A stretch of DNA of 64,000 nt from Eledone cirrhosa (Eukaryota), in the NCBI GenBank assembly GCA_964016885.1, contig OZ024743.1:163556001-163620000 (forward strand), written 5' to 3'. The notes under the pieces are model-generated. The model was not told the DNA's origin. It searched no databases and was given only the letters and a program-made list of their open reading frames with translations. The translations under genes and the position numbers were made by a program. Below are positions 5,624 to 64,000 of this stretch, piece by piece (position 1 is the first letter of the stretch; every line of letters starts with the position of its first letter).

Positions 5624-5649
5624 GTAAGATAATATCATGGTTAATTTCA

Positions 5650-27374: not shown

Positions 27375-28357
27375 AACTAGCAAACTACCACAGGAAACAA
27401 GCACTATCAAATTCCGGGAAGGTTTGGTAGAAGTCGTAAACAGCTTCTGCTACCTGGCTGACCAAATTAGCAGCTGAGGTGAGTGTTCTGAAAGTACAGA
27501 ATGAGAACGGGATGGAAAAAAATTCAGGGAGCTACTACCGCTGGTAGCTACAAAAAACTTTTCCCTCAAAATGAAAGGTAGATGATGCGTGCATACGAAT
27601 AGCAATGTTGCATGGTAGTGAGACCTGGACACTGTGAAGAAGACTTGCATAGATTGGAAAGAAATGAAGCTTGCATGCTCTGATGGATGTGTAATAGTAA
27701 TATAAACTAACTGCAGGAGTAACTAAGCATAAGTGGAATCTGATGCTGTGTGCAAGAAAGGAGATTGCGTTGGTATGGAGGAGTGATGCGTATGAAGGTT
27801 GACAGCTGTATAAAAAGGTGCAGAGCACTAAAAGTTGATGGAAGCCATGGAATGGCGAGACCAAGGAAGACTTGGGATGAGGTGATAAAAGCTAACCTTG
27901 CACAATTGCACCTCTCAAAGATGATACAGGAGCGAGATCTCTGGTGTTATGCAGTAATACAGAAAACCCGCCTTCCCATGGTCACGAGCTGAAGCTGAAG
28001 AACATGTATAGTATGCACCACTCCCACCCTTCCATACATCTCCCATGAGGTCAGGCTGAAGCCTACATCTAGGGAAGCCTCCCGCTCACATGGTAAATCG
28101 GTTGTGTAGGTGTCATGCAAAAAGCACCCAGTCCACACTGTAAAATGATCGTGTAGGTGTCACAACAAAAAGCACCCAGTACTCACTGTAAATGTAGTTG
28201 GCACAAGGCAGGGCATCGAGCTGGAGAAACCAAGCCAAAACCATTTCTGTATGAGCGAGACATGGTCACCTGACCTGGCATTTCTCACAACAGAACAACT
28301 CATCTAACCCATGCTAGCATGGAAAAATGGACAGTAAACAGTGATGATGATGATGAT
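27375..28357 (+). mobile_element. RTE 3' fragment with tail; same subfamily as 9237-10035, opposite orientation
   Basis: MQERRLRWYGGVMRMKVDSCIKRCRALKVDGSHGMARPRKTWDEVI; tail TAACCCATGCTAGCATGGAAAAATGGACAGTAAACAGTGATGATGAT. Confidence 0.88.
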
Positions 28358-28492: not shown

Positions 28493-28608
28493 TGTTAGAA
28501 ATTAAAGATAAATAGAAATTAAAGAGTGATAGGAGGAAGGAACGGGGGAAATAATGGGAAAAAAGGGAAGAAAAAAACGTCTTCAGTCATCCATCTTGGA
28601 AAGAAAGA

Positions 28609-28793
28609 GGTGCAGGGATGACTGTAGTTAAGGATTTTGTTTCAAATCATGTGGTTCCAGGTTCATTCCCAATGTGTGACATGTTGGGCAAACGTCTTCT
28701 ACTACAGCATCAGTTTGACTAATGCCATGTGAGTAAAAGTTAGTACACTGAGACTGCAGACATCCATCATATATATATATGTGTGTGTGTCCC
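28609..28793 (+). mobile_element. 5' half of a tRNA-derived SINE (family 2) that runs into the first array unit
   Basis: GGTGCAGGGATGACTGTAGTTAAG (A-box region), GGTTCATTCC at 28660-28669 (B box), TTGGGCAAACGTCTTCTACTACAGC..GCCATGTGAGT, then the unit core. Confidence 0.75.
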
Positions 28794-30898
28794 AGTAAAA
28801 TCTAGAACACTGAGACTGCAGACATCCATCATATATATATATGTGTGTGTGTCCCAGTAAAAGTTAGTACACTGAGACTGCAGACATCCATCATATATAT
28901 ATATGTGTGTGTGTCCCAGTAAAAGTTAGTACACTGAGACTGCAGACATCCATCATATATATATATGTGTGTGTGTCCCAGTAAAAGTTAGAACACTGAG
29001 ACTGCAGACATCCATCATATATATATATATGTGTGTGTGTCCCAGTAAAAGTTAATACACTGAGACTGCAGACATCCATCATATATATATATGTGTGTGT
29101 CCCAGTAAAAGTTAATACACTGAGACTGCAGACATCCATCATATATATATATGTGTGTGTGTCCCAGTAAAAGTTAGAACACTGAGACTGCAGACATCCA
29201 TCATATATATATATGTGTGTGTGTCCCAGTAAAAGTTAGAACACTGAGACTGCAGACATCCATCATATATATATATGTGTGTGTGTCCCAGTAAAAGTTA
29301 GTACACTGAGACTGCAGACATCCATCATATATATATATATATGTGTGTGTCCCAGTAAAATCTAGAACACTGAGACTGCAGACATCCATCATATATATAT
29401 ATGTGTGTGTGTCCCAGTAAAAGTTAGTACACTGAGACTGCAGACATCCATCATATATATATATGTGTGTGTGTCCCAGTAAAAGTTAGAACACTGAGAC
29501 TGCAGACATCCATCATATATATATATATGTGTGTGTGTCCCAGTAAAAGTTAATACACTGAGACTGCAGACATCCATCATATATATATATGTGTGTGTCC
29601 CAGTAAAAGTTAATACACTGAGACTGCAGACATCCATCATATATATATATGTGTGTGTGTCCCAGTAAAAGTTAGAACACTGAGACTGCAGACATCCATC
29701 ATATATATATATGTGTGTGTGTCCCAGTAAAAGTTAGAACACTGAGACTGCAGACATCCATCATATATATATATGTGTGTGTGTCCCAGTAAAAGTTAGA
29801 ACACTGAGACTGCAGACATCCATCATATATATATATATGTGTGTGTGTCCCAGTAAAAGTTAATACACTGAGACTGCAGACATCCATCATATATATATAT
29901 ATGTGTGTGTCCCAGTAAAAGTTAGAACACTGAGACTGCAGACATCCATCATATATATATATATATGTGTGTGTCCCAGTAAAAGTTAGTACACTGAGAC
30001 TGCAGACATCCATCATATATATATATGTGTGGGTGTCCCAGTAAAAGTTAGTACACTGAGACTGCAGACATCCATCATATATATATATATATGTGTGTGT
30101 GTCCCAGTAAAAGTTAGAACACTGAGACTGCAGACATCCATCATATATATATATATGTGTGTGTGTCCCAGTAAAAGTTAGTAGACTGAGACTGCAGACA
30201 TCCATCATATATATATATGTGTGTGTGTCCCAGTAAAAGTTAGAACACTGAGACTGCAGACATCCATCATATATATATATGTGTGGGTGTCCCAGTAAAA
30301 GTTACAACACTGAGACTGCAGACATCCATCATATATATATATATATGTGTGTGTGTCCCAGTAAAAGTTAGAACACTGAGACTGCAGACATCCATCATAT
30401 ATATATATATGTGTGTGTGTCCCAGTAAAAGTTAGTAGACTGAGACTGCAGACATCCATCATATATATATATGTGTGTGTGTCCCAGTAAAAGTTAGAAC
30501 ACTGAGACTGCAGACATCCATCATATATATATATGTGTGGGTGTCCCAGTAAAAGTTAATACACTGAGACTGCAGACATCCATCATATATATATATATAT
30601 GTGTGTGTCCCAGTAAAATCTAGAACACTGAGACTGCAGACATCCATCATATATATATATGTGTGTGTCCCAGTAAAAGTTAGAACACTGAGACTGCAGA
30701 CATCCATCATATATATATATATATGTGTGTGTCCCAGTAAAAGTTAGTACACTGAGACTGCAGACATCCATCATATATATATATATATGTGTGTGTCCCA
30801 GTAAAAGTTACAACACTGAGACTGCAGACATCCATCATATATATATATATATGTGTGTGTGTCCCAGTAAAAGTTAGTACACTGAGACTGCAGACATT

Positions 30899-30937
<39 letters not shown>

Positions 30938-33517
30938 CCCAGTAAAAGTTAGTACACTGAGACTGCAGACACCCATCATATATATATATATATGTGTGTG
31001 TCCCAGTAAAAGTTAGTAGACTGAGACTGCAGACATCCATCATATATATATATGTGTGTGTGTCCCAGTAAAAGTTAGTACACTGAGAGTGCAGACATCC
31101 ATCATATATATAGATGTGTGTGTGTGTCCCAGTAAAAGTTAGTACACTGAGACTGCAGACATCCATCATATATATATATATATATGTGTGTGTGTCCCAG
31201 TAAAAGTTAGAACACTGAGAGTGCAGACATCCATCATATATATATATGTGTGTGTCCCCCAGTAAAAGTTAGTACACTGAGACTGCAGACATCCATCATA
31301 TATATGTATATGTGTGTGTGTCCCAGTAAAAGTTAGTACACTGAGACTGCAGACATCCATCATATATATATATATGTGTGTGTGTCCCAGTAAAAGTTAG
31401 AACACTGAGACTGCAGACATCCATCATATATATAGATGTATGTGTGTCCCCCAGTAAAAGTTAGAACACTGAGACTGCAGACATCCATCATATATATATA
31501 TGTGTGTGTGTCCCAGTAAAAGTTAGAACACTGAGACTGCAGACATCCATCATATATATATATATGTGTGTGTGTCCCAGTAAAAGTTAGTACACTGAGA
31601 CTGCAGACATCCATCATATATATATATATGTGTGTGTGTCCCAGTAAAAGTTAGAACACTGAGACTGCAGACATCCATCATATATATATATATGTGTGTG
31701 TGTCCCAGTAAAAGTTAGAACACTGAGACTGCAGACATCCATCATATATATAGATGTATGTGTGTCCCCCAGTAAAAGTTAGAACACTGAGACTGCAGAC
31801 ATCCATCATATATATATATATGTGTGTGTGTCCCAGTAAAAGTTAGTACACTGAGACTGCAGACATCCATCATATATATATATATGTGTGTGTGTCCCAG
31901 TAAAAGTTAGTACACTGAGACTGCAGACATCCATCATATATATATATATGTGTGTGTGTCCCAGTAAAAGTTAGAACACTGAGACTGCAGACATCCATCA
32001 TATATATATATATGTGTGTGTGTCCCAGTAAAAGTTAGAACACTGAGACTGCAGACATCCATCATATATATATATATGTGTGTGTGTCCCAGTAAAAGTT
32101 AGTACACTGAGACTGCAGACATCCATCATATATATATATGTGTGAGTGTCCCAGTAAAAGTTAGAACACTGAGACTGCAGACATCCATCATATATATATA
32201 TATATGTGTGTGTCTCAGTAAAAGTTACAACACTGAGACTGCAGACATCCATCATATATATATATATATGTGTGTGTGTCCCAGCAAAAGTTAGTACACT
32301 GAGACTGCAGACATCCATCATATATATATATGTGTGTGTGTCCTAGTAAAAGTTAGTACACTGGGACTGCAGACATCCATCGTATATATATATGTGTGTG
32401 TCCCAGTAAAAGTTAGTAGACTGAGACTGCAGACATCCATCATATATATATATGTGTGTGTGTCCCAGTAAAAGTTAGTACACTGAGACTGCAGACATCC
32501 ATCATATATATATATATGTGTGTGTGTCCCAGTAAAAGTTACAACACTGAGACTGCAGACATCCATCATATATATATGTGTGTGTGTGTCCCAGTAAAAG
32601 TTAGTACACTGAGACTGCAGACATCCATCATATATATATATGTGTGTGTCCCAGTAAAAGTTAGTACACTGAGACTGCAGACATCCATCATATATATATA
32701 TGTGTGTGTGTGTGTCCCAGTAAAAGTTAGTACACTGAGACTGCAGACATCCATCATATATATATATGTGTGTGTGTCCCAGTAAAAGTTAGTACACTGA
32801 GACTGCAGACATCCATCATATATATATATATATATGTGTGTGTGTCCCAGTAAAAGTTAGTACACTGAGACTGCAGACATCCATCATATATATATGTGTG
32901 TGTGTGTCCCAGTAAAAGTTAGTACACTGAGACTGCAGACATCCATCATATATATATATATGTGTGTGTGTCCCAGTAAAAGTTAGTAGACTGAGACTGC
33001 AGACATCCATCATATATATATATGTGTGTGTGTCCCAGTAAAAGTTAGAACACTGAGACTGCAGACATCCATCATATATATATATGTGTGGGTGTCCCAG
33101 TAAAAGTTAATACACTGAGACTGCAGACATCCATCATATATATATATATATGTGTGTGTCCCAGTAAAAGTTAGTACACTGAGACTGCAGACATCCATCA
33201 TATATATATATATGTGTGTGTGTGTCCCAGTAAAAGTTAGTACACTGAGACTGCAGACATCCATCATATATATATATGTGTGTGTGTCCCAGTAAAAGTT
33301 AGTACACTGGGACTGCAGACATCCATCATATATATATATATGTGTGTGTGTCCCAGTAAAAGTTAGTACACTGGGACTGCAGACATCCATCATATATATA
33401 TATGTGTGTGTGTGTCCCAGTAAAAGTTACAACACTGAGACTGCAGACATCCATCATATATATATATATATGTGTGTGTGTCCCAGTAAAAGTTAGTACA
33501 CTGAGACTGCAGACATT

Positions 33518-33556
<39 letters not shown>

Positions 33557-36424
33557 CCCAGTAAAAGTTAGTACACTGAGACTGCAGACACCCATCATAT
33601 ATATATATATATGTGTGTGTCCCAGTAAAAGTTAGTAGACTGAGACTGCAGACATCCATCATATATATATATGTGTGTGTGTCCCAGTAAAAGTTAGTAC
33701 ACTGAGAGTGCAGACATCCATCATATATATAGATGTGTGTGTGTGTCCCAGTAAAAGTTAGTAGACTGAGACTGCAGACATCCATCATATATATATATGT
33801 GTGTGTCCCAGTAAAAGTTAGTACACTGAGACTGCAGACATCCATCATATATATATATGTGTGTGTGTCCCAGTAAAAGTTAGTACACTGAGACTGCAGA
33901 CATCCATCATATATATATATATGTGTGTGTGTCCCAGTAAAAGTTAGAACACTGAGACTGCAGACATCCATCATATATATAGATGTATGTGTGTCCCCCA
34001 GTAAAAGTTAGAACACTGAGACTGCAGACATCCATCATATATATATATGTGTGTGTGTCCCAGTAAAAGTTAGAACACTGAGACTGCAGACATCCATCAT
34101 ATATATATATATGTGTGTGTGTCCCAGTAAAAGTTAGTACACTGAGACTGCAGACATCCATCATATATATATATATGTGTGTGTGTCCCAGTAAAAGTTA
34201 GAACACTGAGACTGCAGACATCCATCATATATATATATATGTGTGTGTGTCCCAGTAAAAGTTAGAACACTGAGACTGCAGACATCCATCATATATATAG
34301 ATGTATGTGTGTCCCCCAGTAAAAGTTAGAACACTGAGACTGCAGACATCCATCATATATATATATATGTGTGTGTGTCCCAGTAAAAGTTAGTACACTG
34401 AGACTGCAGACATCCATCATATATATATATATGTGTGTGTGTCCCAGTAAAAGTTAGTACACTGAGACTGCAGACATCCATCATATATATATATATGTGT
34501 GTGTGTCCCAGTAAAAGTTAGAACACTGAGACTGCAGACATCCATCATATATATATATATGTGTGTGTGTCCCAGTAAAAGTTAGAACACTGAGACTGCA
34601 GACATCCATCATATATATATATATGTGTGTGTGTCCCAGTAAAAGTTAGTACACTGAGACTGCAGACATCCATCATATATATATATGTGTGAGTGTCCCA
34701 GTAAAAGTTAGAACACTGAGACTGCAGACATCCATCATATATATATATATATGTGTGTGTCTCAGTAAAAGTTACAACACTGAGACTGCAGACATCCATC
34801 ATATATATATATATATGTGTGTGTGTCCCAGCAAAAGTTAGTACACTGAGACTGCAGACATCCATCATATATATATATGTGTGTGTCCCAGTAAAAGTTA
34901 GTACACTGAGACTGCAGACATCCATCATATATATATATGTGTGTGTGTCCTAGTAAAAGTTAGTACACTGGGACTGCAGACATCCATCGTATATATATAT
35001 GTGTGTGTCCCAGTAAAAGTTAGTAGACTGAGACTGCAGACATCCATCATATATATATATATATGTGTGTGTGTCCCAGTAAAAGTTAGTACACTGAGAC
35101 TGCAGACATCCATCATATATATATATGTGTGTGTCCCAGTAAAAGTTAGTACACTGAGAGTGCAGACATCCATCATATATATAGATGTGTGTGTGTGTCC
35201 CAGTAAAAGTTAGTAGACTGAGACTGCAGACATCCATCATATATATATATATATGTGTGTGTGTCCCAGTAAAAGTTAGAACACTGAGACTGCAGACATC
35301 CATCATATATATATATGTGTGTGTGTCCCAGTAAAAGTTAGTACACTGAGACTGCAGACATCCATCATATATATATATGTGTGTGTGTCCCAGTAAAAGT
35401 TAGTACACTGAGACTGCAGACATCCATCATATATATATATGTGTGTGTCCCAGTAAAAGTTAGTACACTGAGAGTGCAGACATCCATCATATATATAGAT
35501 GTGTGTGTGTGTCCCAGTAAAAGTTAGTACACTGAGACTGCAGACATCCATCATATATATATATATATGTGTGTGTGTCCCAGTAAAAGTTAGAACACTG
35601 AGACTGCAGACATCCATCATATATATATATGTGTGTGTGTCCCAGTAAAAGTTAGTACACTGAGACTGCAGACATCCATCATATATATATATGTGTGTGT
35701 GTCCCAGTAAAAGTTAGTACACTGAGACTGCAGACATCCATCATATATATATATGTGTGTGTGTCCCAGTAAAAGTTAGAACACTGAGACTGCAGACATC
35801 CATCATATATATATATGTGTGTGTGTCCCAGTAAAAGTTAGTACACTGAGACTGCAGACATCCATCATATATATATATGTGTGTGTGTCCCAGTAAAAGT
35901 TAGTACACTGAGACTGCAGACATCCATCATATATATATATGTGTGTGTGTCCCAGTAAAAGTTAGTACACTGAGACTGCAGACATCCATCATATATATAT
36001 ATATATATGTGTGTGTGTCCCAGTAAAAGTTAGTACACTGAGACTGCAGACATCCATCATATATATATGTGTGTGTGTGTCCCAGTAAAAGTTAGTACAC
36101 TGAGACTGCAGACATCCATCATATATATATATGTGTGTGTCCCAGTAAAAGTTAGTAGACTGAGACTGCAGACATCCATCATATATATATATGTGTGTGT
36201 CCCAGTAAAAGTTAGTACACTGAGACTGCAGACATCCATCATATATATATATGTGTGTGTCCTAGTAAAAGTTAGTACACTGAGACTGCAGACATCCATC
36301 ATATATATATATATGTGTGTGTCCCAGTAAAAGTTAGTACACTGAGACTGCAGACATCCATCATATATATATATATATATGTGTGTGTCCCAGTAAAAGT
36401 TAGTACACTGAGACTGCAGACATT

Positions 36425-36463
<39 letters not shown>

Positions 36464-38563
36464 CCCAGTAAAAGTTAGTACACTGAGACTGCAGACATCC
36501 ATCATATATATATATGTGTGTGTCCCAGTAAAAGTTAGTAGACTGAGACTGCAGACATCCATCATATATATATATGTGTGTGTCCCAGTAAAAGTTAGTA
36601 CACTGAGACTGCAGACATCCATCATATATATATATGTGTGTGTGTCCCAGTAAAAGTTAGTACACTGAGACTACAGACATCCATCATATATATATATGTG
36701 TGTGTGTCCCAGTAAAAGTTAGTAGACTGAGACTGCAGACATCCATCATATATATATATGTGTGTGTGTCCCAGTAAAAGTTAGTACACTGAGACTGCAG
36801 ACATCCATCATATATATATATATATGTGTGTGTGTCCCAGTAAAAGTTAGAACACTGAGACTGCAGACATCCATCATATATATATATATGTGTGTGTCCC
36901 AGTAAAAGTTAGAACACTGAGACTGCAGACATCCATCATATATATATATATGTGTGTGTCCCAGTAAAAGTTAGAACACTGAGACTGCAGACATCCATCA
37001 TATATATATGTGTGTGTGTGTCCCAGTAAAAGTTAATACACTGAGACTGCAGACATCCATCATATATATATATGTGTGTGTCCCAGTAAAAGTTAATACA
37101 CTGAGACTGCAGACATCCATCATATATATATATGTGTGTGTGTCCCAGTAAAAGTTAGAACACTGAGACTGCAGACATCCATCATATATATATATGTGTG
37201 TGTGTCCCAGTAAAAGTTAGAACACTGAGACTGCAGACATCCATCATATATATATATGTGTGTGTGTCCCAGTAAAAGTTAGTACACTGAGACTGCAGAC
37301 ATCCATCATATATATATATATATGTGTGTGTCCCAGTAAAATCTAGAACACTGAGACTGCAGACATCCATCATATATATATATGTGTGTGTCCCAGTAAA
37401 AGTTAGAACACTGAGACTGCAGACATCCATCATATATATATATATATGTGTGTGTCCCAGTAAAAGTTAGTACACTGAGACTGCAGACATCCATCATATA
37501 TATATATGTGTGGGTGTCCCAGTAAAAGTTAGTACACTGAGACTGCAGACATCCATCATATATATATATATATGTGTGTGTCCCAGTAAAAGTTAGTACA
37601 CTGAGACTGCAGACATCCATCATATATATATATGTGTGGGTGTCCCAGTAAAAGTTAGTACACTGAGACTGCAGACATCCATCATATATATATATGTGTG
37701 TGTGTCCCAGTAAAAGTTAGAACACTGAGACTGCAGACATCCATCATATATATATATATGTGTGTGTGTCCCAGTAAAAGTTAGTAGACTGAGACTGCAG
37801 ACATCCATCATATATATATATGTGTGTGTGTCCCAGTAAAAGTTAGAACACTGAGACTGCAGACATCCATCATATATATATATGTGTGGGTGTCCCAGTA
37901 AAAGTTACAACACTGAGACTGCAGACATCCATCATATATATATATATATGTGTGTGTGTCCCAGTAAAAGTTAGAACACTGAGACTGCAGACATCCATCA
38001 TATATATATATATGTGTGTGTGTCCCAGTAAAAGTTAGTAGACTGAGACTGCAGACATCCATCATATATATATATGTGTGTGTGTCCCAGTAAAAGTTAG
38101 AACACTGAGACTGCAGACATCCATCATATATATATATGTGTGGGTGTCCCAGTAAAAGTTAATACACTGAGACTGCAGACATCCATCATATATATATATA
38201 TATGTGTGTGTCCCAGTAAAATCTAGAACACTGAGACTGCAGACATCCATCATATATATATATGTGTGTGTCCCAGTAAAAGTTAGAACACTGAGACTGC
38301 AGACATCCATCATATATATATATATATGTGTGTGTGTCCCAGTAAAAGTTAGAACACTGAGACTGCAGACATCCATCATATATATATATGTGTGTGTCCC
38401 AGTAAAAGTTAGTACACTGAGACTGCAGACATCCATCATATATATATATATATGTGTGTGTCCCAGTAAAAGTTACAACACTGAGACTGCAGACATCCAT
38501 CATATATATATATATATGTGTGTGTGTCCCAGTAAAAGTTAGTACACTGAGACTGCAGACATT

Positions 38564-38602
<39 letters not shown>

Positions 38603-41600
38603 CCCAGTAAAAGTTAGTACACTGAGACTGCAGACACCCATCATATATATATATATATGTGTGTGTCCCAGTAAAAGTTAGTAGACTGAGACTGCAGACA
38701 TCCATCATATATATATATGTGTGTGTGTCCCAGTAAAAGTTAGTACACTGAGAGTGCAGACATCCATCATATATATAGATGTGTGTGTGTGTCCCAGTAA
38801 AAGTTAGTACACTGAGACTGCAGACATCCATCATATATATATATATATATGTGTGTGTGTCCCAGTAAAAGTTAGAACACTGAGAGTGCAGACATCCATC
38901 ATATATATATATGTGTGTGTCCCCCAGTAAAAGTTAGTACACTGAGACTGCAGACATCCATCATATATATGTATATGTGTGTGTGTCCCAGTAAAAGTTA
39001 GTACACTGAGACTGCAGACATCCATCATATATATATATATGTGTGTGTGTCCCAGTAAAAGTTAGAACACTGAGACTGCAGACATCCATCATATATATAG
39101 ATGTATGTGTGTCCCCCAGTAAAAGTTAGAACACTGAGACTGCAGACATCCATCATATATATATATGTGTGTGTGTCCCAGTAAAAGTTAGAACACTGAG
39201 ACTGCAGACATCCATCATATATATATATATGTGTGTGTGTCCCAGTAAAAGTTAGTACACTGAGACTGCAGACATCCATCATATATATATATATGTGTGT
39301 GTGTCCCAGTAAAAGTTAGAACACTGAGACTGCAGACATCCATCATATATATATATATGTGTGTGTGTCCCAGTAAAAGTTAGAACACTGAGACTGCAGA
39401 CATCCATCATATATATAGATGTATGTGTGTCCCCCAGTAAAAGTTAGAACACTGAGACTGCAGACATCCATCATATATATATATATGTGTGTGTGTCCCA
39501 GTAAAAGTTAGTACACTGAGACTGCAGACATCCATCATATATATATATATGTGTGTGTGTCCCAGTAAAAGTTAGTACACTGAGACTGCAGACATCCATC
39601 ATATATATATATATGTGTGTGTGTCCCAGTAAAAGTTAGAACACTGAGACTGCAGAGATCCATCATATATATATATATGTGTGTGTGTCCCAGTAAAAGT
39701 TAGAACACTGAGACTGCAGACATCCATCATATATATATATATGTGTGTGTGTCCCAGTAAAAGTTAGTACACTGAGACTGCAGACATCCATCATATATAT
39801 ATATGTGTGAGTGTCCCAGTAAAAGTTAGAACACTGAGACTGCAGACATCCATCATATATATATATATATGTGTGTGTCTCAGTAAAAGTTACAACACTG
39901 AGACTGCAGACATCCATCATATATATATATATATGTGTGTGTGTCCCAGCAAAAGTTAGTACACTGAGACTGCAGACATCCATCATATATATATATATGT
40001 GTGTGTCCCAGTAAAAGTTAGTACACTGAGACTGCAGACATCCATCATATATATATATGTGTGTGTGTCCTAGTAAAAGTTAGTACACTGGGACTGCAGA
40101 CATCCATCGTATATATATATATGTGTGTCCCAGTAAAAGTTAGTACACTGAGACTGCAGACATCCATCATATATATATATATGTGTGTCCCCCAGTAAAA
40201 GTTAGAACACTGAGACTGCAGACATCCATCATATATATATATATGTGTGTGTGTCCCAGTAAAAGTTAGTAGACTGAGACTGCAGACATCCATCATATAT
40301 ATATATATATGTGTGTGTGTCCCAGTAAAAGTTAGTACACTGAGACTGCAGACATCCATCATATATATATATATGTGTGTGTGTCCCAGTAAAAGTTACA
40401 ACACTGAGACTGCAGACATCCATCATATATATATATATGTGTGTGTGTCCCAGTAAAAGTTAGTACACTGAGACTGCAGACATCCATCATATATATATAT
40501 ATGTGTGTGTGTCCCAGTAAAAGTTACAACACTGAGACTGCAGACATCCATCATATATATATATATATATGTGTGTGTGTCCCAGTAAAAGTTAGTACAC
40601 TGAGACTGCAGACATCCATCATATATATATATGTGTGTGTGTCCCAGTAAAAGTTAGTACACTGAGACTGCAGACATCCATCATATATATATATATGTGT
40701 GTGTGTCCCAGTAAAAGTTACAACACTGAGACTGCAGACATCCATCATATATATATGTGTGTGTGTGTCCCAGTAAAAGTTAGTACACTGAGACTGCAGA
40801 CATCCATCATATATATATATGTGTGTGTGTCCCAGTAAAAGTTAGTACACTGAGACTGCAGACATCCATCATATATATATATGTGTGTGTCCCAGTAAAA
40901 GTTAGTACACTGAGACTGCAGACATCCATCATATATATATATATATGTGTGTGTGTGTCCTAGTAAAAGTTAGTACACTGAGACTGCAGACATCCATCAT
41001 ATATATATATATGTGTGTGTCCCAGTAAAAGTTAGTACACTGAGACTGCAGACATCCATCATATATATATATATATATGTGTGTGTGTCCCAGTAAAAGT
41101 TAGTACACTGAGACTGCAGACATCCATCATATATATATATGTGTGTGTCCCAGTAAAAGTTAGTAGACTGAGACTGCAGACATCCATCATATATATATAT
41201 GTGTGTGTCCCAGTAAAAGTTAGTACACTGAGACTGCAGACATCCATCATATATATATATGTGTGTGTGTCCCAGTAAAAGTTAGTACACTGAGACTACA
41301 GACATCCATCATATATATATATGTGTGTGTGTCCCAGTAAAAGTTAGTAGACTGAGACTGCAGACATCCATCATATATATATATGTGTGTGTGTCCCAGT
41401 AAAAGTTAGTACACTGAGACTGCAGACATCCATCGTATATATATATATGTGTGTGTGTCCCAGTAAAAGTTAGTACACTGAGACTGCAGACATCCATCAT
41501 ATATATATATGTGTGTGTGTCCCAGTAAAAGTTAGAACACTGAGACTGCAGACATCCATCATATATATATATATGTGTGTGTGTCCCAGTAAAAGTTAGT

Positions 41601-47600: not shown

Positions 47601-48222
47601 TCCCAGTAAAAGTTAGTACACTGAGACTGCAGACATCCATCATATATATATATGTGTGTGTGTCCCAGTAAAAGTTAGTACACTGAGACTACAGACATCC
47701 ATCATATATATATATGTGTGTGTGTCCCAGTAAAAGTTAGAACACTGAGACTGCAGACATCCATCATATATATATATATGTGTGTGTGTCCCAGTAAAAG
47801 TTAGTACACTGAGACTATAGACATCCATCATATATATATATATATATGTGTGTGTCCCAGTAAAAGTTACAACACTGAGACTGCAGACATCCATCATATA
47901 TATATATATGTGTGTGTGTCCCAGTAAAAGTTAGTACACTGAGACTATAGACATCCATCATATATATATATATATATATGTGTGTGTGTCCCAGTAAAAG
48001 TTAGTACACTGAGACTGCAGACATCCATCATATATATATATGTGTGTGTGTCCCAGTAAAAGTTAGTACACTGAGACTGCAGACATCCATCATATATATA
48101 TATATGTGTGTGTGTCCCAGTAAAAGTTAGTACACTGAGACTGCAGACATCCATCATATATATATATATATATGTGTGTGTCCCAGTAAAAGTTAGTACA
48201 CTGAGACTGCAGACATTCCATC

Positions 48223-48254
<32 letters not shown>

Positions 48255-50972: not shown

Positions 50973-51004
<32 letters not shown>

Positions 51005-54000
51005 CCCAGTAAAAGTTAGTACACTGAGACTGCAGACATCCATCATATATATATATGTGTGTGTGTCCCAGTAAAAGTTAGTACACTGAGACTGCAGACA
51101 TCCATCATATATATATATATGTGTGTGTCCCAGTCAAAGTTAGTACACTGAGACTGCAGACATCCATCATATATATATATGTGTGTGTGTCCCAGTAAAA
51201 GTTAGAACACTGAGACTGCAGACATCCATCATATATATATATATGTGTGTGTGTCCCAGTAAAATTTAGTACACTGAGACTGCAGACATCCATCATATAT
51301 ATATGTGTGTGTGTGTCCCAGTAAAAGTTAGTACACTGAGAGTGCAGACATCCATCATATATATATATGTGTGTGTGTCCCCCAGTAAAAGTTAGAACAC
51401 TGAGACTGCAGACATCCATCATATATATATATGTGTGTGTGTGTCCCAGTAAAAGTTACTACACTGAGACTGCAGACATCCATCATATATATATATGTGT
51501 GTGTGTCCCAGTAAAAGTTAGTACACTGAGACTGCAGACATCCATCATATATATATATGTGTGTGTGTCCCAGTAAAAGTTAGTACACTGAGACTGCAGA
51601 CATCCATCATATATATATATGTGTGTGTGTCCCAGTAAAAGTTAGTACACTGAGACTGCAGACATCCATCATATATATATATGTGTGTGTCCCAGTAAAA
51701 GTTAGTAGACTGAGACTGCAGACATCCATCATATATATATATGTGTGTGTGTCCCAGTAAAAGTTAGTACACTGAGACTGCAGACATCCATCATATATAT
51801 ATATATGTGTGTGTGTCCCAGTAAAAGTTACAACACTGAGACTGCAGACATCCATCATATATATATGTGTGTGTGTGTCCCAGTAAAAGTTAGTACACTG
51901 AGACTGCAGACATCCATCATATATATATATGTGTGTGTCCCAGTAAAAGTTAGTAGACTGAGACTGCAGACATCCATCATATATATATATGTGTGTGTGT
52001 CCCAGTAAAAGTTAGTACACTGAGACTGCAGACATCCATCATATATATATATGTGTGTGTGTCCCAGTAAAAGTTAGTACACTGAGACTGCAGACATCCA
52101 TCATATATATATATGTGTGTGTCCCAGTAAAAGTTAGTACACTGAGACTGCAGACATCCATCATATATATATATATGTGTGTGTCCTAGTAAAGGTTAGT
52201 ACACTGAGACTGCAGACATCCATCATATATATATATATATATGTGTGTGTGTCCCAGTAAAAGTTAGTACACTGAGACTGCAGACATCCATCATATATAT
52301 ATATGTGTGTGTCCCAGTAAAAGTTAGTACACTGAGACTGCAGACATCCATCATATATATATATGTGTGTGTCCCAGTAAAAGTTAGTACACTGAGACTG
52401 CAGACATCCATCATATATATATATGTGTGTGTCCCAGTAAAAGTTAGTAGACTGAGACTGCAGACATCCATCATATATATATATGTGTGTGTGTCCCAGT
52501 AAAAGTTAGTACACTGAGACTGCAGACATCCATCATATATATATATATATATGTGTGTGTGTCCCAGTAAAAGTTAGTACACTGAGACTGCAGACATCCA
52601 TCATATATATATGTGTGTGTGTGTCCCAGTAAAAGTTAGTACACTGAGACTGCAGACATCCATCATATATATATATGTGTGTGTCCCAGTAAAAGTTAGT
52701 ACACTGAGACTGCAGACATCCATCATATATATATATATATGTGTGTGTGTCCCAGTAAAAGTTAGTACACTGAGACTGCAGACATCCATCATATATATAT
52801 ATATATGTGTGTGTGTCCCAGTAAAAGTTAGTACACTGAGACTGCAGACATCCATCATATATATATATGTGTGTGTCCCAGTAAAAGTTAGTACACTGAG
52901 ACTGCAGACATCCATCATATATATATATATATGTGTGTGTGTCCTAGTAAAAGTTAGTACACTGAGACTGCAGACATCCATCATATATATATATATGTGT
53001 GTGTCCCAGTAAAAGTTAGTACACTGAGACTGCAGACATCCATCATATATATATATATATATGTGTGTGTGTCCCAGTAAAAGTTAGTACACTGAGACTG
53101 CAGACATCCATCATATATATATATGTGTGTGTGTCCCAGTAAAAGTTAGTACACTGAGACTGCAGACATCCATCATATATATATATATGTGTGTGTGTCC
53201 CAGTAAAAGTTAGTACACTGAGACTGCAGACATCCATCATGTATATATATGTGTGTGTGTCCCAGTAAAAGTTAGTACACTGAGACTGCAGACATCCATC
53301 ATATATATATATATGTGTGTCCCAGTAAAAGTTAGTACACTGAGACTGCAGACATCCATCATATATATATGTGTGTGTGTGTCCCAGTAAAAGTTAGTAC
53401 ACTGAGAGTGCAGACATCCATCATATATATATATATATATATGTGTGTGTGTCCTAGTAAAATTTAGTACACTGAGACTGCAGACATCCATCATATATAT
53501 ATGTGTGTGTGTGTCCCAGTAAAAGTTAGTACACTGAGAGTGCAGACATCCATCATATATATATATGTGTGTGTGTCCCCCAGTAAAAGTTAGAACACTG
53601 AGACTGCAGACATCCATCATATATATATAATGTGTGTGTGTGTCCCAGTAAAAGTTAGTACACTGAGACTGCAGACATCCATCATATATATATATGTGTG
53701 TGTGTCCCAGTAAAAGTTAGTACACTGAGACTGCAGACATCCATCATATATATATATGTGTGTGTGTCCCAGTAAAAGTTAGTACACTGAGACTGCAGAC
53801 ATCCATCATATATATATATATATGTGTGTGTCCCAGTAAAAGTTAGAATACTGAGACTGCAGACATCCATCATATATATATATGTGTGTGTGTCCCAGTA
53901 AAAGTTAGTACACTGAGACTGCAGACATCCATCATATATATATATGTGTGTGTGTCCCAGTAAAAGTTAGTACACTGAGACTGCAGACATCCATCATATA

Positions 54001-57000
54001 TATATATGTGTGTGTCCCAGTAAAAGTTAGTACACTGAGACTGCAGACATCCATCATATATATATATGTGTGTGTCCCAGTAAAAGTTAGTAGACTGAGA
54101 CTGCAGACATCCATCATATATATATATGTGTGTGTGTCCCAGTAAAAGTTAGTACACTGAGACTGCAGACATCCATCATATATATATATATGTGTGTGTG
54201 TCCCAGTAAAAGTTAGTACACTGAGACTGCAGACACCCATCATATATATATATGTGTGTGTCCCAGTAAAAGTTAGTACACTGAGACTGCAGACATCCAT
54301 CATATATATATATGTGTGTGTCCCAGTAAAAGTTAGTACACTGAGACTGCAGACATCCATCATATATATATATGTGTGTGTCCCAGTAAAAATTAGTAGA
54401 CTGACACTGCAGACATCCATCATATATATATATGTGTGTGTGTCCCAGTAAAAGTTAGTACACTGAGACTGCAGACATCCATCATATATATATATATATG
54501 TGTGTGTGTCCCAGTAAAAGTTAGAACACTGAGACTGCAGACATCCATCATATATATATATGTGTGTGTGTGTCCCAGTAAAAGTTAGTACACTGAGACT
54601 GCAGACATCCATCATATATATATATGTGTGTGTGTCCCAGTAAAAGTTAGTACACTGAGACTATAGACATCCATCATATATATATATATATATGTGTGTG
54701 TGTCCCAGTAAAAGTTAGTACACTGAGACTGCAGACATCCATCATATATATATATGTGTGTGTGTGTCCCAGTAAAAGTTAGTACACTGAGACTGCAGAC
54801 ATCCATCATATATATATATATGTGTGTGTGTCCCAGTAAAAGTTAGTACACTGAGACTGCAGACATCCATCATATATATATATATGTGTGTGTGTCCCAG
54901 TAAAAGTTAGTACACTGAGACTGCAGACATCCATCATATATATATATATGTGTGTGTGTCCCAGTAAAAGTTAGTAGACTGAGACTGCAGACATCCATCA
55001 TATATATATATATGTGTGTGTCCCAGTAAAAGTTAGAACACTGAGACTGCAGACATCCATCATATATATATATGTGTGTGTGTCCCAGTAAAAGTTAGTA
55101 GACTGAGACTGCAGACATCCATCATATATATATATGTGTGTGTGTCCCAGTAAAAGTTAGTACACTGAGACTGCAGACATCCATCATATATATATATGTG
55201 TGTGTCCCAGTAAAAGTTAGTACACTGAGACTGCAGACATCCATCATATATATATATGTGTGTGTGTCCCAGTAAAAGTTAGTACACTGAGACTGCAGAC
55301 ATCCATCATATATATATATATGTGTGTGTGTCCCAGTAAAAGTTAGTACACTGAGACTGCAGACATCCATCATATATATATATGTGTGTGTGTCCCAGTA
55401 AAAGTTACAACACTGAGACTGCAGACATCCATCATATATATATGTGTGTGTGTGTCCCAGTAAAAGTTAGTACACTGAGACTGCAGACATCCATCATATA
55501 TATATATGTGTGTGTCCCAGTAAAAATTAGTAGACTGAGACTGCAGACATCCATCATATATATATATGTGTGTGTGTCCCAGTAAAAGTTAGTACACTGA
55601 GACTGCAGACATCCATCATATATATATATGTGTGTGTGTCCCAGTAAAAGTTAGTACACTGAGACTGCAGACATCCATCATATATATATATATGTGTGTG
55701 TGTCCCAGTAAAAGTTAGTACACTGAGACTGCAGACATCCATCATATATATATATGTGTGTGTGTCCCAGTAAAAGTTAGTACACTGAGACTGCAGACAT
55801 CCATCATATATATATATGTGTGTGTGTCCCAGTAAAAGTTAGTACACTGAGACTGCAGACATCCATCATATATATATATATGTGTGTGTGTCCCAGTAAA
55901 AGTTAGTACACTGAGACTGCAGACATCCATCATATATATATATGTGTGTGTGTCCCAGTAAAAGTTAGTACACTGAGACTGCAGACATCCATCATATATA
56001 TATATGTGTGTGTGTCCCAGTAAAAGTTAGTACACTGAGACTGCAGACATCCATCATATATATATATATGTGTGTGTGTCCCAGTAAAAGTTAGTACACT
56101 GAGACTGCAGACATCCATCATATATATATATGTGTGTGTGTGTCCCAGTAAAAGTTAGTACACTGAGACTGCAGACATCCATCATACATATATATGTGTG
56201 TGTGTCCCAGTAAAAGTTAGTACACTGAGACTGCAGACATCCATCATATATATATATATGTGTGTGTGTCCCAGTAAAAGTTAGAACACTGAGACTGCAG
56301 ACATCCATCATATATATATATATATGTGTGTGTGTCCCAGTAAAAGTTAGTACACTGAGACTGCAGACATCCATCATATATATATATGTGTGAGTGTCCC
56401 AGTAAAAGTTAGTACACTGAGACTGCAGACATCCATCATATATATATATATGTGTGTGTCCCAGTAAAAGTTAGAACACTGAGACTGCAGACATCCATCA
56501 TATATATATATATGTGTGTGTCCCAGTAAAAGTTAGAACACTGAGACTGCAGACATCCATCATATATATATATATGTGTGTGTCCCAGTAAAAGTTACAA
56601 CACTGAGACTGCAGACATCCATCATATATATATATGTGTGTGTGTCCCAGTAAAAGTTAGTACACTGAGACTGCAGACATCCATCATATATATATATGTG
56701 TGTGTGTCCCAGTAAAAGTTAGAACACTGAGACTGCAGACATCCATCATATATATATATATGTGTGTGTGTCCCAGTAAAAGTTAGTACACTGAGACTGC
56801 AGACATCCATCATATATATATATGTGTGTGTGTCCCAGTAAAAGTTAGAACACTGAGACTGCAGACATCCATCATATATATATATATGTGTGTGTGTCCC
56901 AGTAAAAGTTAGTACACTGAGACTGCAGACATCCATCATATATATATATATATGTGTGTGTGTCCCAGTAAAAGTTAGTACACTGAGACTGCAGACATCC

Positions 57001-57377
57001 ATCATATATATATATGTGTGTGTGTCCCAGTAAAAGTTAGTACACTGAGACTGCAGACATCCATCATATATATATATGTGTGTGTGTCCCAGTAAAAGTT
57101 AGTACACTGAGACTACAGACATCCATCATATATATATATGTGTGTGTGTCCCAGTAAAAGTTAGAACACTGAGACTGCAGACATCCATCATATATATATA
57201 TGTGTGTGTGTCCCAGTAAAAGTTACAACACTGAGACTGCAGACATCCATCATATATATATATATGTGTGTGTCCCAGTAAAAGTTACAACACTGAGACT
57301 GCAGACATCCATCATATATATATATATGTGTGTGTGTCCCAGTAAAAGTTAGTACACTGAGACTATAGACATCCATC

Positions 57378-57409
<32 letters not shown>

Positions 57410-60400
57410 CCCAGTAAAAGTTAGTACACTGAGACTGCAGACATCCATCATATATATATATGTGTGTGTGTCCCAGTAAAAGTTAGTACACTGAGACTGC
57501 AGACATCCATCATATATATATATATGTGTGTGTCCCAGTAAAAGTTAGTACACTGAGACTGCAGACATCCATCATATATATATATGTGTGTGTGTCCCAG
57601 TAAAAGTTAGAACACTGAGACTGCAGACATCCATCATATATATATATATGTGTGTGTGTCCCAGTAAAATTTAGTACACTGAGACTGCAGACATCCATCA
57701 TATATATATGTGTGTGTGTGTCCCAGTAAAAGTTAGTACACTGAGAGTGCAGACATCCATCATATATATATATGTGTGTGTGTCCCAGTAAAAGTTAGTA
57801 CACTGAGACTGCAGACATCCATCATATATATATATGTGTGTGTCCCAGTAAAAGTTAGTACACTGAGACTGCAGACATCCATCATATATATATATATGTG
57901 TGTGTCCCAGTAAAAGTTAGAACACTGAGACTGCAGACATCCATCATATATATATATGTGTGTGTCCCCCAGTAAAAGTTAGAACACTGAGACCGCAGAC
58001 ATCCATCATATATATATATGTGTGTGTGTGTCCCAGTAAAAGTTAGTACACTGAGACTGCAGACATCCATCATATATATATATGTGTGTGTGTCCCAGTA
58101 AAAGTTAGTACACTGAGACTGCAGACATCCATCATATATATATATGTGTGTGTGTGTCCCAGTAAAAGTTAGTACACTGAGACTGCAGACATCCATCATG
58201 TATATATATGTGTGTGTGTGTCCCAGTAAAAGTTAGTACACTGAGACTGCAGACATCCATCATATATATATATATATGTGTGTGTCCCAGTAAAAGTTAG
58301 TACACTGAGACTGCAGACATCCATCATATATATATATATATGTGTGTGTCCCAGTAAAAGTTAGAACACTGAGACTGCAGACATCCATCATATATATATA
58401 TGTGTGTGTGTCCCAGTAAAAGTTAGTACACTGAGACTGCAGACATCCATCATATATATATATATGTGTGTGTCCCAGTAAAAGTTAGTACACTGAGACT
58501 GCAGACATCCATCATATATATATATATGTGTGTGTCCCAGTAAAAGTTAGAATACTGAGACTGCAGACATCCATCATATATATATATGTGTGTGTGTCCC
58601 AGTAAAAGTTAGTACACTGAGACTGCAGACATCCATCATATATATATATGTGTGTGTCCCAGTAAAAGTTAGTACACTGAGACTGCAGACATCCATCATA
58701 TATATATATGTGTGTGTCCCAGTAAAAGTTAGTAGACTGAGACTGCAGACATCCATCATATATATATATGTGTGTGTGTCCCAGTAAAAGTTAGTACACT
58801 GAGACTGCAGACATCCATCATATATATATATGTGTGTGTGTGTCCCAGTAAAAGTTAGTACACTGAGACTGCAGACATCCATCATATATATATATATATG
58901 TGTGTGTGTCCCAGTAAAAGTTAGTACACTGAGACTGCAGACATCCATCATATATATATATGTGTGTGTGTCCCAGTAAAAGTTAGAACACTGAGACTGC
59001 AGACATCCATCATATATATATGTGTGTGTGTGTCCCAGTAAAAGTTAGTACACTGAGACTGCAGACATCCATCATATATATATATGTGTGTGTCCCAGTA
59101 AAAGTTAGTACACTGAGACTGCAGACATCCATCATATATATATATGTGTGTGTCCCAGTAAAAATTAGTAGACTGAGACTGCAGACATCCATCATATATA
59201 TATATGTGTGTGTGTCCCAGTAAAAGTTAGTACACTGAGACTGCAGACATCCATCATATATATATATATGTGTGTGTGTGTCCCAGTAAAAGTTAGAACA
59301 CTGAGACTGCAGACATCCATCATATATATATATGTGTGTGTGTCCCAGTAAAAGTTAGTACACTGAGACTGCAGACATCCATCATATATATATATATGTG
59401 TGTGTCCCAGTAAAAGTTAGAACACTGAGACTGCAGACATCCATCATATATATATATGTGTGTGTGTCCCAGTAAAAGTTAGAACACTGAGACTGCAGAC
59501 ATCCATCATATATATATATGTGTGTGTGTGTCCCAGTAAAAGTTAGAACACTGAGACTGCAGACATCCATCATATATATATATATGTGTGTGTCCCAGTA
59601 AAAGTTAGTAGACTGAGACTGCAGACATCCATCATATATATATATATGTGTGTGTGTGTCCCAGTAAAAGTTAGTACACTGAGACTGCAGACATCCATCA
59701 TATATATATATGTGTGTGTGTCCCAGTAAAAGTTAGTACACTGAGACTGCAGACATCCATCATATATATATATATGTGTGTGTGTCCCAGTAAAAGTTAG
59801 TACACTGAGACTGCAGACATCCATCATATATATATATATGTGTGTGTCCCAGTAAAAGTTAGTACACTGAGACTGCAGACATCCATCATATATATATATA
59901 TGTGTGTGTCCCAGTAAAAGTTAGAACACTGAGACTGCAGACATCCATCATATATATATATGTGTGTGTGTCCCAGTAAAAGTTAGAACACTGAGACTGC
60001 AGACATCCATCATATATATATGTGTGTGTGTGTCCCAGTAAAAGTTAGTACACTGAGACTGCAGACATCCATCATATATATATATGTGTGTGTGTCCCAG
60101 TAAAAGTTAGAACACTGAGACTGCAGACATCCATCATATATATATATATGTGTGTGTGTCCCAGTAAAAGTTAGAACACTGAGACTGCAGACATCCATCA
60201 TATATATATATGTGTGTGTGTCCCAGTAAAAGTTAGAACACTGAGACTGCAGACATCCATCATATATATATATATATGTATGTGTGTCCCCCAGTAAAAG
60301 TTAGAACACTGAGACTGCAGACATCCATCATATATATATATGTGTGTGTGTCCCAGTAAAAGTTAGAACACTGAGACTGCAGACATCCATCATATATATA

Positions 60401-63400
60401 TATGTGTGTGTGTCCCAGTAAAAGTTAGTACACTGAGACTGCAGACATCCATCATATATATGTATATGTGTGTGTGTGCCAGTAAAAGTTAGAACACTGA
60501 GACTGCAGACATCCATCATATATATATATGTGTGTGTGTGTCCCAGTAAAAGTTAGTACACTGAGACTGCAGACATCCATCATATATATATATGTGTGTG
60601 TGTCCCAGTAAAAGTTAGAACACTGAGAGTGCAGACATCCATCATATATATATATATGTGTGTGTGTCCCAGTAAAAGTTAGTACACTGAGACTGCAGAC
60701 ATCCATCATATATATATATGTGTGTGTGTCCCAGTAAAAGTTAGTACACTGAGACTGCAGACATCCATCATATATATATATATGTGTGTGTGTCCCAGTA
60801 AAAGTTAGTACACTGAGACTGCAGACATCCATCATATATATATATGTGTGTGTGTCCCAGTAAAAGTTAGTACACTGAGACTGCAGACATCCATCATATA
60901 TATATATATGTGTGTGTGTCCCAGTAAAAGTTAGTACACTGAGACTGCAGACACCCATCATATATATATATATGTGTGTGTCCCAGTAAAAGTTAGTAGA
61001 CTGAGACTGCAGACATCCATCATATATATATATATATGTATGTGTGTCCCCCAGTAAAAGTTAGAACACTGAGACTGCAGACATCCATCATATATATATA
61101 TATGTGTGTGTGTCCCAGTAAAAGTTAGAACACTGAGACTGCAGACATCCATCATATATATATATATGTGTGTGTGTCCCAGTAAAAGTTAGAACACTGA
61201 GACTGCAGACATCCATCATATATATATATATGTGTGTGTCCCAGTAAAAGTTAGAACACTGAGACTGCAGACATCCATCATATATATATATATGTGTGTG
61301 TGTCCCAGTAAAAGTTAGTACACTGAGACTGCAGACATCCATCATATATATATATGTGTGTGTGTCCCAGTAAAAGTTAGTACACTGAGACTGCAGACAT
61401 CCATCATATATATATATATGTGTGTGTCCCAGTAAAAGTTAGTACACTGAGACTGCAGACATCCATCATATATATATATGTGTGTGTGTCCCAGTAAAAG
61501 TTAGAACACTGAGACTGCAGACATCCATCATATATATATATATGTGTGTGTGTCCCAGTAAAATTTAGTACACTGAGACTGCAGACATCCATCATATATA
61601 TATGTGTGTGTGTGTCCCAGTAAAAGTTAGTACACTGAGAGTGCAGACATCCATCATATATATATATGTGTGTGTGTCCCCCAGTAAAAGTTAGAACACT
61701 GAGACCGCAGACATCCATCATATATATATATGTGTGTGTGTGTCCCAGTAAAAGTTAGTACACTGAGACTGCAGACATCCATCATATATATATATGTGTG
61801 TGTGTCCCAGTAAAAGTTAGTACACTGAGACTGCAGACATCCATCATATATATATATGTGTGTGTGTCCCAGTAAAAGTTAGTACACTGAGACTGCAGAC
61901 ATCCATCATATATATATATATATGTGTGTGTCCCAGTAAAAGTTAGTACACTGAGACTGCAGACATCCATCATATATATATATGTGTGTGTGTGTCCCAG
62001 TAAAAGTTAGTACACTGAGACTGCAGACATCCATCATATATATATATGTGTGTGTCCCAGTAAAAGTTAGTACACTGAGACTGCAGACATCCATCATATA
62101 TATATATATATGTGTGTGTCCCAGTAAAAGTTAGAATACTGAGACTGCAGACATCCATCATATATATATATGTGTGTGTGTCCCAGTAAAAGTTAGAACA
62201 CTGAGACTGCAGACATCCTTCATATATATATATGTGTGTGTCCCAGTAAAAGTTAGTAGACTGAGACTGCAGACATCCATCATATATATATATATGTGTG
62301 TGTGTCCCAGTAAAAGTTAGTACACTGAGACTGCAGACATCCATCATATATATATATGTGTGTGTCCCAGTAAAAGTTAGTACACTGAGACTGCAGACAT
62401 CCATCATATATATATATATGTGTGTGTCCCAGTAAAAGTTAGAACACTGAGACTGCAGACATCCATCATATATATATATGTGTGTGTGTGTCCCAGTAAA
62501 AGTTAGTACACTGAGACTGCAGACATCCATCATATATATATATATGTGTGTGTCCCAGTAAAAGTTAGTACACTGAGACTGCAGACATCCATCATATATA
62601 TATATATGTGTGTGTCCCAGTAAAAGTTAGAACACTGAGACTGCAGACATCCATCATATATATATATGTGTGTGTGTCCCAGTAAAAGTTAGAACACTGA
62701 GACTGCAGACATCCATCATATATATATATATGTGTGTGTGTCCCAGTATAAGTTAGTACACTGAGACTACAGACATCCATCATATATATATATGTGTGTG
62801 TGTCCCAGTAAAAGTTAGTACACTGAGACTGCAGACATCCATCATATATATATATGTGTGTGTCCCAGTAAAGTTAGTACACTGAGACTGCAGACATCCA
62901 TCATATATATATATATATGTGTGTGTGTCCCAGTAAAAGTTAGTACACTGAGACTACAGACATCCATCATATATATATATATATGTGTGTGTGTCCCAGT
63001 AAAAGTTAGTACACTGAGACTGCAGACATCCATCATATATATATATATGTGTGTGTGTCCCAGTAAAAGTTAGTACACTGAGACTGCAGACATCCATCAT
63101 ATATATATGTGTGTGTGTCCCAGTAAAAGTTAGAACACTGAGACTGCAGACATCCATCATATATATATATGTGTGTGTCCCAGTAAAAGTTAGTACACTG
63201 AGACTGCAGAAATCCATCATATATATATATGTGTGTGTGTCCCAGTAAAATTTACAACACTGAGACTGCAGACATCCATCATATATATATATATGTGTGT
63301 GTCCCAGTAAAAGTTAGTACACTGAGACTGCAGACATCCATCATATATATATATGTGTGTGTGTCCCAGTAAAAGTTAGTACACTGAGACTGCAGACATC

Positions 63401-63463
63401 CATCATATATATATATATATGTGTGTGTCCCAGTAAAAGTTAGTAGACTGAGACTGCAGACAT

Positions 63464-63504
<41 letters not shown>

Positions 63505-64000
63505 CCCAGTAAAATTTACAACACTGAGACTGCAGACATCCATCATATATATATATATGTGTGTGTCCCAGTAAAAGTTAGTACACTGAGACTGCAGACA
63601 TCCATCATATATATATATGTGTGTGTGTCCCAGTAAAAGTTAGTACACTGAGACTGCAGACATCCATCATATATATATATATATGTGTGTGTCCCAGTAA
63701 AAGTTAGTAGACTGAGACTGCAGACATCCATCATATATATATATATATGTGTGTGTGTGTCCCAGTAAAAGTTAGTACACTGAGACTGCAGACATCCATC
63801 ATATATATATATGTGTGTCTCCCAGTAAAAGTTAGTAGACTGAGACTGCAGACATCCATCATATATATATATATGTGTGTGTGTCCCAGTAAAAGTTAGT
63901 ACACTGAGACTGCAGACATCCATCATATATATACATGTGTGTCTCCCAGTAAAAGTTAGTAGACTGAGACTGCAGACATCCATCATATATATATATATGT
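28732..64000. repeat. Tandem satellite over 35 kb, about 570 units of 60-66 bp: CCCAGTAAAAGTTAGTACACTGAGACTGCAGACATCCATC(AT)n(GT)m; open at the window end
   Basis: Uninterrupted head-to-tail units; count estimated as 35.27 kb divided by 62 bp. Recurrent core variants TAGAACAC, TAGTAGAC, TACAACAC, TAATACAC, TCTAGAACAC. Confidence 0.98.

Follow-up and report, generated by a model that had tools for sequence, protein, structure and literature searches.

A 612-unit satellite at one locus in Eledone cirrhosa, probably grown in place from the interior of a SINE

How does a satellite begin, and what remains of the sequence from which it began? The birth of satellites is usually inferred from old, homogenised arrays. 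The locus considered here lies in a stretch of 64,000 nucleotides from the octopus Eledone cirrhosa (assembly GCA_964016885.1, contig OZ024743.1, here C4:163556001-163620000; "the window"), which ends in a long tandem array placed within an intron of the gene GEMIN5 and headed by part of a short interspersed element (SINE). The account preferred here, with a probability of about 0.82, is that the array is a single-locus satellite of 612 units, that its unit is the interior of the SINE heading it, and that it grew in place, by a small duplication and, after it, recurrent unequal exchange. At this one locus one can read the seed element, both breakpoints, a time marker in the form of a long terminal repeat (LTR) element and an age gradient. 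Plain coordinates below are those of the window, and L031 denotes the next stretch, C4:163620001-163630000.

The array, its unit and its single locus

Tandem Repeats Finder (TRF), applied to the window only, returns one array with a period of 62, 559.9 copies and 93% matches, running from 28732 to the window end. With the adjoining stretch the array comprises 612 units over 38,542 bp and extends from 28732 to 3.3 kb past the window; an earlier reading made from the sequence alone (the sequence-only reading) had put it at about 570 units or more, which the full count bears out. The unit is composed of a 37-bp core, followed by (AT)n, (GT)m and usually CCC. The parts of the array and of the SINE before it are as follows.

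28603-28731, plus strand: head and body of the seed SINE, forming its 5' part, profile positions 13-144, with 97 of 128 columns equal to the family majority
28732-64000, plus strand: tandem array, in-window part, about 560 of the 612 units
28732-28793, plus strand: leading unit, a 37-bp core with (AT)6(GT)5 and CCC, profile positions 145-203
63940-64000, plus strand: array continuing at the window end, the last ~52 units being L031:1-3275

The units are closely alike. Their cores differ on average by 1.7% from the commonest unit type and have a pi of 2.9%, and the tail is pure AT/GT in 538 of the 612 units, with n between 5 and 13 and m between 3 and 7. There are 130 distinct full-unit types. 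That the later units begin after CCC, as the sequence-only reading had it, is true of most of the inter-unit junctions, with 14 of the 611 ending in CCT, CTC or GCC instead.

From where does this unit come? A search with the head and first unit gave dispersed matches of 70-83% on many contigs (17 copies inspected). To guard against circularity the family loci were gathered with another of the dispersed copies as query, giving 40 matches from 40 scored candidates out of 4601 first-look candidates, and a profile of 411 nodes was built from an alignment of 30 loci, the first 30 of the 40 matches, with the query copy included. The family so defined is dispersed, short and multi-copy, with shared ends, and its 30 copies align over ~360 bp. 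Against this profile the head and unit 1 together match positions 14-202 with 121.8 bits, the alignment crossing the junction without a gap. By itself the unit matches with 27 bits and an E value of 3.8e-10 that refers to a small search, and none of 500 shuffles of the 37-bp core gave any reported match. That the SINE head passes unbroken into unit 1 at 28732 can be read directly in the sequence, as had been described, and the proposal that the unit is an internal segment of one SINE is upheld by the profile search, in which the unit aligns to the SINE interior in continuation of the head.

The seed copy is itself well separated from its relatives, being diverged by 24-30% from its family, and the core of the leading unit equals the family majority at only 26 of 37 positions. 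The units inherit these private changes, with 11 of 37 core positions differing from the family majority. Because the seed copy is diverged and the units carry the changes private to it, the copy was probably already old when amplification began. A related claim concerned the TAGTAGAC state, which is carried by 55 units and was thought to be nearer to the family. It does agree with the family majority at that position; its ancestral status is not borne out, both terminal units having C there, and variant alleles point toward the family majority in 5 of 27 cases against about 2.7 expected (p about 0.12, calculated by hand).

The array is found once. A junction pattern allowing up to 2 mismatches occurs 610 times in the assembly of 3.0 Gb, always on the same strand, with 610 occurrences in the array, and the core pattern has 607 matches genome-wide and 607 in the array. 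Because the genome-wide counts equal the array counts (the first 100 places being given individually), the array is single-locus in the assembly. The several arrays of a classical multi-locus heterochromatic satellite are not seen, and neither are arrays of this unit at many loci without a SINE head, which the sequence-only reading had named as a sign that a pre-existing satellite had been inserted; its suggestion of a genome-wide core search ends with every match accounted for by this array. Neither did other family copies yield an array: one exact 29-place pattern for the same breakpoints gave 0 matches, and TRF on 47 family loci gave no multi-copy tandem of this SINE segment, the unit list being judged by eye. 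The junction alignment and the single locus together support the amplification of an internal SINE segment in place.

The right boundary and the order of events

What stands at the other end of the array? The sequence-only reading predicted the missing 3' half of the SINE with a target site duplication (TSD). Both are absent, and the following features are found instead.

L031, ending at 3275: trailing unit, cut inside its AT tract by the LTR
L031:3276-8972: Ty3/gypsy-type LTR element, with LTRs at 3276-3724 and 8200-8972 and TATG on both sides
L031:8973-9004: remainder of the trailing unit, an AT/GT tract of 32 bases with GTCCC at its end, weakly aligned to the profile from position 208
L031:9000-9140 and on: unrelated tRNA-like dispersed repeat, truncated at a GTCCC of its own and standing where the SINE 3' half would be

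The LTR element has a coding region broken over several frames, in which 6 of 12 pieces of open reading frame (ORF) carry the Pfam domains DUF7041, RVT_1, RT_RNaseH and Integrase_H2C2, belonging to gag-like, reverse transcriptase, RNase H and integrase families, in Ty3/gypsy order, with rve below the cut-off. The paired LTRs, the domain order and the 4-bp duplication are those of a Ty3/gypsy LTR retrotransposon. As a separate observation, another SINE-like repeat is inserted into each LTR at the same AT-rich site, the two insertions being different (L031:3427-3630 and 8351-8878), which suggests a strong target preference; close copies of this repeat lie at 7432-7542 and 16738-16849 of the window.

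The repeat abutting the array has 44 matches including itself, with z of 3.1-4.6 against 6 tRNA-like genes, and its copies reach upstream of their own GTCCC, whereas the copy beside the array does not. At 2 of the 5 loci checked (L054:1466-2082 and L062:1261-1676) it also forms inverted pairs. Over the 26.7 kb that follow the array the profile gives no more than three matches, all of low complexity, and because the SINE 3' half is missing no TSD can be read around the seed copy. An isolated 3' half of the same family is present at 11541-11694 (profile 199-376, 81.8 bits). It belongs to a separate copy 17 kb upstream of the array and was rejected as the missing part of the seed.

The order in which these features arose is suggested by their nesting. 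Complete units all have a GT tail closed by CCC or one of its variants, and since that ending of the last unit stands only beyond the LTR element, the first duplication is likely to be older than the LTR insertion. Growth would thus have started from the diverged SINE copy lying in sense orientation in the GEMIN5 intron, in which the segment from AGTAAAAG to the GTCCC closing the AT/GT tract would have been duplicated once, with replication slippage or end joining at the tract's edge as the probable mechanism. The microhomology at this first duplication is only a TAA, standing just past the right breakpoint and again 2 nt into the unit, and was discounted as too short. The gypsy-type element, whose place in the last unit is plain, would have entered afterwards. 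The SINE 3' half would have been lost at some point, probably by a deletion between GTCCC and the same motif in the neighbouring repeat, which appears to be the simplest reading of its absence.

The final step, the growth itself, is reflected in the internal pattern of the array. The longest run of identical consecutive units common to two places is 20, compared with 3-4 in 10 shuffles, and 13 blocks, 8-27 units in length, are duplicated at lags of 40-186 units. A fixed higher-order period was not found, the best lag identity being 0.095 against a background of 0.042. Alleles seen 2-30 times cluster, with a mean span of 267 units against 391 +/- 20 for random placement (0 of 2000 draws as small). 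The pattern is also polar: by sixth from the head, 65, 42, 65, 43, 8 and 5% of units lie within duplicated 5-unit blocks, and the last sixth holds 12 of the 17 singleton alleles (p about 1e-6). Such a gradient is in keeping with repeated unequal exchange or conversion towards the head, where the duplicated blocks look recent, and with an older, quieter end at the LTR element. The copying of blocks over varied distances, chiefly in the two thirds nearer the head, would presumably reflect unequal crossing-over or conversion, with slippage varying the AT and GT counts.

Promoter, reads and rival explanations

The head of the SINE carries a putative remnant of a promoter for RNA polymerase III (Pol III), of which two parts can be recognised.

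28619-28638, plus strand: decayed A-box region, with a 2-bp deletion and substitutions relative to the family, followed by TTTT at 28635-28638
28660-28669, plus strand: B-box-like motif GGTTCATTCC, at the place where it had been noted, lacking the A of the canonical box

Box-like motifs stand at tRNA spacing, and among the 30 family copies an A-like box is present in 8, a canonical B box in 3 and a relaxed B box in 16. The earlier idea of a Pol III promoter remnant directed toward the array is right as to direction, the head pointing into the array, and doubtful as to function: with a broken A box, a TTTT run between the two boxes and a B box of non-canonical form, Pol III drive is unlikely and the promoter looks dead. 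Transcripts of the array would arise only as part of the GEMIN5 intron. In a separate observation, the best tRNA-model matches returned (L093-L105) fall into two near-identical sequence groups with varying anticodons on many contigs, and are probably tRNA-like repeats and not tRNA genes.

Reads from outside the assembly provide a further view of the locus. In short-read run X1, which is possibly from the sample behind the assembly, a 298-bp contig spans 28464-28760 including the head junction, with 0 differences and a depth of 4.7. Contigs over the unit junction and the core have depths of 323-1692, with one rare variant at 14.8 (8 of 12 pieces). Hundreds of units are supported by short reads, the exact figure of 612 and the left-hand duplications being provisional. 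Of the RAD-seq runs, X8 yielded no read and X9 one partial read, which carries no weight either way; 570 units contain a PstI site, the enzyme used being unrecorded. Run X4, from another organism, gave 0 contigs for the array, which is no proof of absence, and runs X4-X6 gave only repeat paralogs of the flank among the pieces listed.

A number of observations weigh against growth in place from this SINE as set out above. The 37-bp core alone scores only 2.0 bits against the profile, and the remnant beyond the LTR element is of low complexity, with 5.8 bits. The 4-bp TSD of that element is weak evidence, lying within a microsatellite, and its LTRs show 9 differences over 151 comparable positions and 0 over 94, an unevenness that makes the overall 3.7% a poor clock. 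The head has a weak likeness to tRNA (z of 1.7-2.7 against 6 tRNA-like genes), and Rfam on 6 family loci gave no tRNA match, with below-threshold matches mostly to microsatellites. The block duplications do not separate unequal crossing-over, conversion and break-induced replication. Finally, depth per assembled copy (five contigs divided by assembled word counts) is 2.7-3.5 against the 4.7 of the head contig, that is 58-75% of the single-copy figure or roughly 350-460 units, where the baseline is one contig and depth is no direct copy number. The assembly may overstate the array length, or the haplotypes may differ.

The last of these points lends itself to an explanation in which the array is real but much shorter, with the blocks of its left two-thirds being in part assembly products, from joined haplotypes or misplaced reads. 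The depth ratio below 1 is as it would predict, and assembly errors would be expected in the part rich in duplications, but that depth still implies hundreds of units, there is no N in the window, and the blocks, of 0.5-1.7 kb, stand at many lags with 85-100% unit-type identity and form no single long doubled stretch. It is an unlikely explanation and, if true, would alter the claims of size and polarity and not that of origin. Could the array instead have come from outside, as a satellite from elsewhere or an extrachromosomal circle that was copied by the rolling-circle route and inserted into the SINE by homology? A circle excised from the same SINE would also be perfectly colinear with it, and the low core pi fits a burst. 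However, a donor array is largely refuted by the lack of a second locus in the assembly, a rolling-circle burst would give a fixed period where lags of varied length and low identity are found, and the two array ends differ in apparent age; such an origin is quite improbable. Amplification through RNA, by Pol III readthrough from the SINE head or reiteration of the unit during SINE insertion, would profit from a head pointing into an array whose plus strand lacks a TTTT terminator over 38.5 kb. Against it stand the broken A box with TTTT between the boxes, the absence of dispersed unit copies from the assembly, and the seed-specific changes shared by the units, by which amplification looks far younger than insertion, and very little weight is given to it.

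A different kind of explanation is that the array has been kept for an effect on GEMIN5 pre-mRNA. UG-binding proteins exist, and RNA editing is heavy in coleoids. The array, on the sense strand of the intron, would present hundreds of (UG)4-6 tracts, and hairpins between units, to UG-binding splicing factors or to editing by ADAR, and four units fold at -82.5 kcal/mol with a z of -6.2, though this z is inflated, as it would be for any such repeat, since shuffling destroys AT runs. Further points against it are the youth of the array and the free variation of its AT and GT counts. Retention for such an effect is very doubtful, and the array is probably neutral. More speculative, and improbable, is a still-growing one-directional array that goes on expanding at the SINE head, its far end frozen by the LTR insertion, hypervariable in living populations, and altering through its UG tracts and hairpins the splicing or A-to-I editing of the transcript of GEMIN5, a core gene of snRNP assembly. 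Any role is a candidate only. Hairpin potential was also considered, and rejected, as a cause of the expansion: the dimer beats 27 of 30 family cores on the plus strand and 30 of 30 on the minus strand, and the monomer 21 of 30, in a post hoc comparison with a common tail that gives a weak hint only.

Known systems and the GEMIN5 intron

With in-place growth from the heading SINE retained as the preferred account, to what kind of system does the array belong? SINE-derived satellites, sSat1-3, have been defined in squamates, where according to the partial text of PMC10702118 a stretch of 70-290 nt from a SINE (67 nt in snakes) serves as the unit and one terminal unit reaches the SINE end. In the same text long loci are homogeneous, as with 320 units at 94%, and reach up to ~950 units, with one distinct Sceloporus locus of more than 1200; the sSats occupy up to thousands of loci with a subtelomeric trend, dinucleotide variation was not observed within sSat3, and their restriction to squamates is called uncertain. 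The octopus unit likewise corresponds to a section of a SINE and falls short of its full length (145-203 of 411), its leading unit continues to the SINE 5' end, the 3' terminus being absent, and there are at least four homogeneous middle monomers. The array is therefore to be placed with the SINE-derived satellites, a kind already known from squamates, and is no new kind of system. It differs from the squamate examples, so far as the partial source describes them, in its mollusc host, in occupying one locus instead of up to thousands, in being interstitial and intronic where the squamate trend, which is not definitional, is subtelomeric, and in a unit that omits both promoter boxes and includes the compound microsatellite of the SINE. 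What distinguishes the array is thus its phylum, that included microsatellite, its single intronic locus and the readable order of events.

Other systems offer partial likenesses. Human transposable element (TE)- and Alu-derived minisatellites are known, with Alu-derived repeats averaging about 2.3-2.4 units in the portion of PMC3389668 available, and the unit of a mouse B1-derived variable number tandem repeat family is a hexamer in that of PMC9659126. Like the octopus array these arose where a portion of a SINE was duplicated locally in tandem and expanded there, but here there are 612 units of 62 bp. Oyster satellites, as partially excerpted from PMC11136912, are TE-related and consist mainly of Helitron/Helentron central repeats. 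They share with the octopus array a mollusc host and a derivation from transposable elements; they lie inside DNA transposons scattered genome-wide, whereas the octopus array stems from one retroposed copy without spread.

The seed family also has possible relatives by name. tRNA-derived SINEs of octopus were reportedly described by Ohshima and Okada in 1994. A CORE-type octopus SINE is named OR2 in the available part of PMC4758252 and OR1 in that of PMC4824008. The seed family resembles these OR SINEs, compared by description only and from those parts, as a ~360-bp octopod element that has A- and B-box-like motifs in its head and an AT/GT tract in its interior. A report of a cephalopod SINE-derived satellite was not found in the literature searched, which held few subscription papers and no genome-paper supplements. 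The locus extends long SINE-derived satellites beyond squamates, and its value is as a record of satellite birth, in which population data can test growth by unequal exchange and polarisation by a flanking insertion.

The gene context is provided by an ORF of the window, which matches two octopod proteins at 79-82% identity, one of them named in its source as gem-associated protein 5, and which has GEMIN5 chains among its Protein Data Bank matches. The exons were located by tblastn with P0001, the octopod homolog bearing that name, at 74-90% identity.

5538-5624, 8528-8731 and 12668-12838, plus strand: earlier GEMIN5 exons
15668-15838, plus strand: last GEMIN5 exon before the array, amino acids 693-749 of P0001, with residues 692-752 mapping to C4:163571665-163571847
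C4:163683143-163683382: next GEMIN5 exon, beyond the window, amino acids 746-826 of P0001

With exons found on both sides, the earlier placement of the array in a GEMIN5 intron holds. It sits in sense orientation within an intron of ~111 kb (C4:163571847-163683143), at an interstitial position, 163.6 of 378.8 Mb. The intron would still be ~67 kb without the array and the LTR element, and the 13 earlier GEMIN5 introns are of 0.7-13 kb. P0001 becomes repeat-like after about residue 820, and a second homolog, P0002, is partial at 825 amino acids; both gene models seem to break near the long intron.

Two further repeats were observed in the window. A 35/39-bp minisatellite lies on both sides (5655-5814 and 7058-7293) of a minus-strand ORF of 385 amino acids resembling a reverse transcriptase (RT; 5868-7025), as if split by the insertion of a long interspersed element (LINE). 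A second dispersed repeat has internal tandems of 46-48 bp, in 2 to 10.8 copies, at 13778-13873, 19467-19624 and 28095-28200, and again at L046, L072, L077 and L088:2037-2545. Its copy at 28095 comes, by eye, after an RT-like C-terminal ORF, and the repeat is probably a LINE 3' end. Short-read contigs over 28117-28199 show many joints going back 35-75, and the repeat is a pool of short tandem seeds of the same kind.

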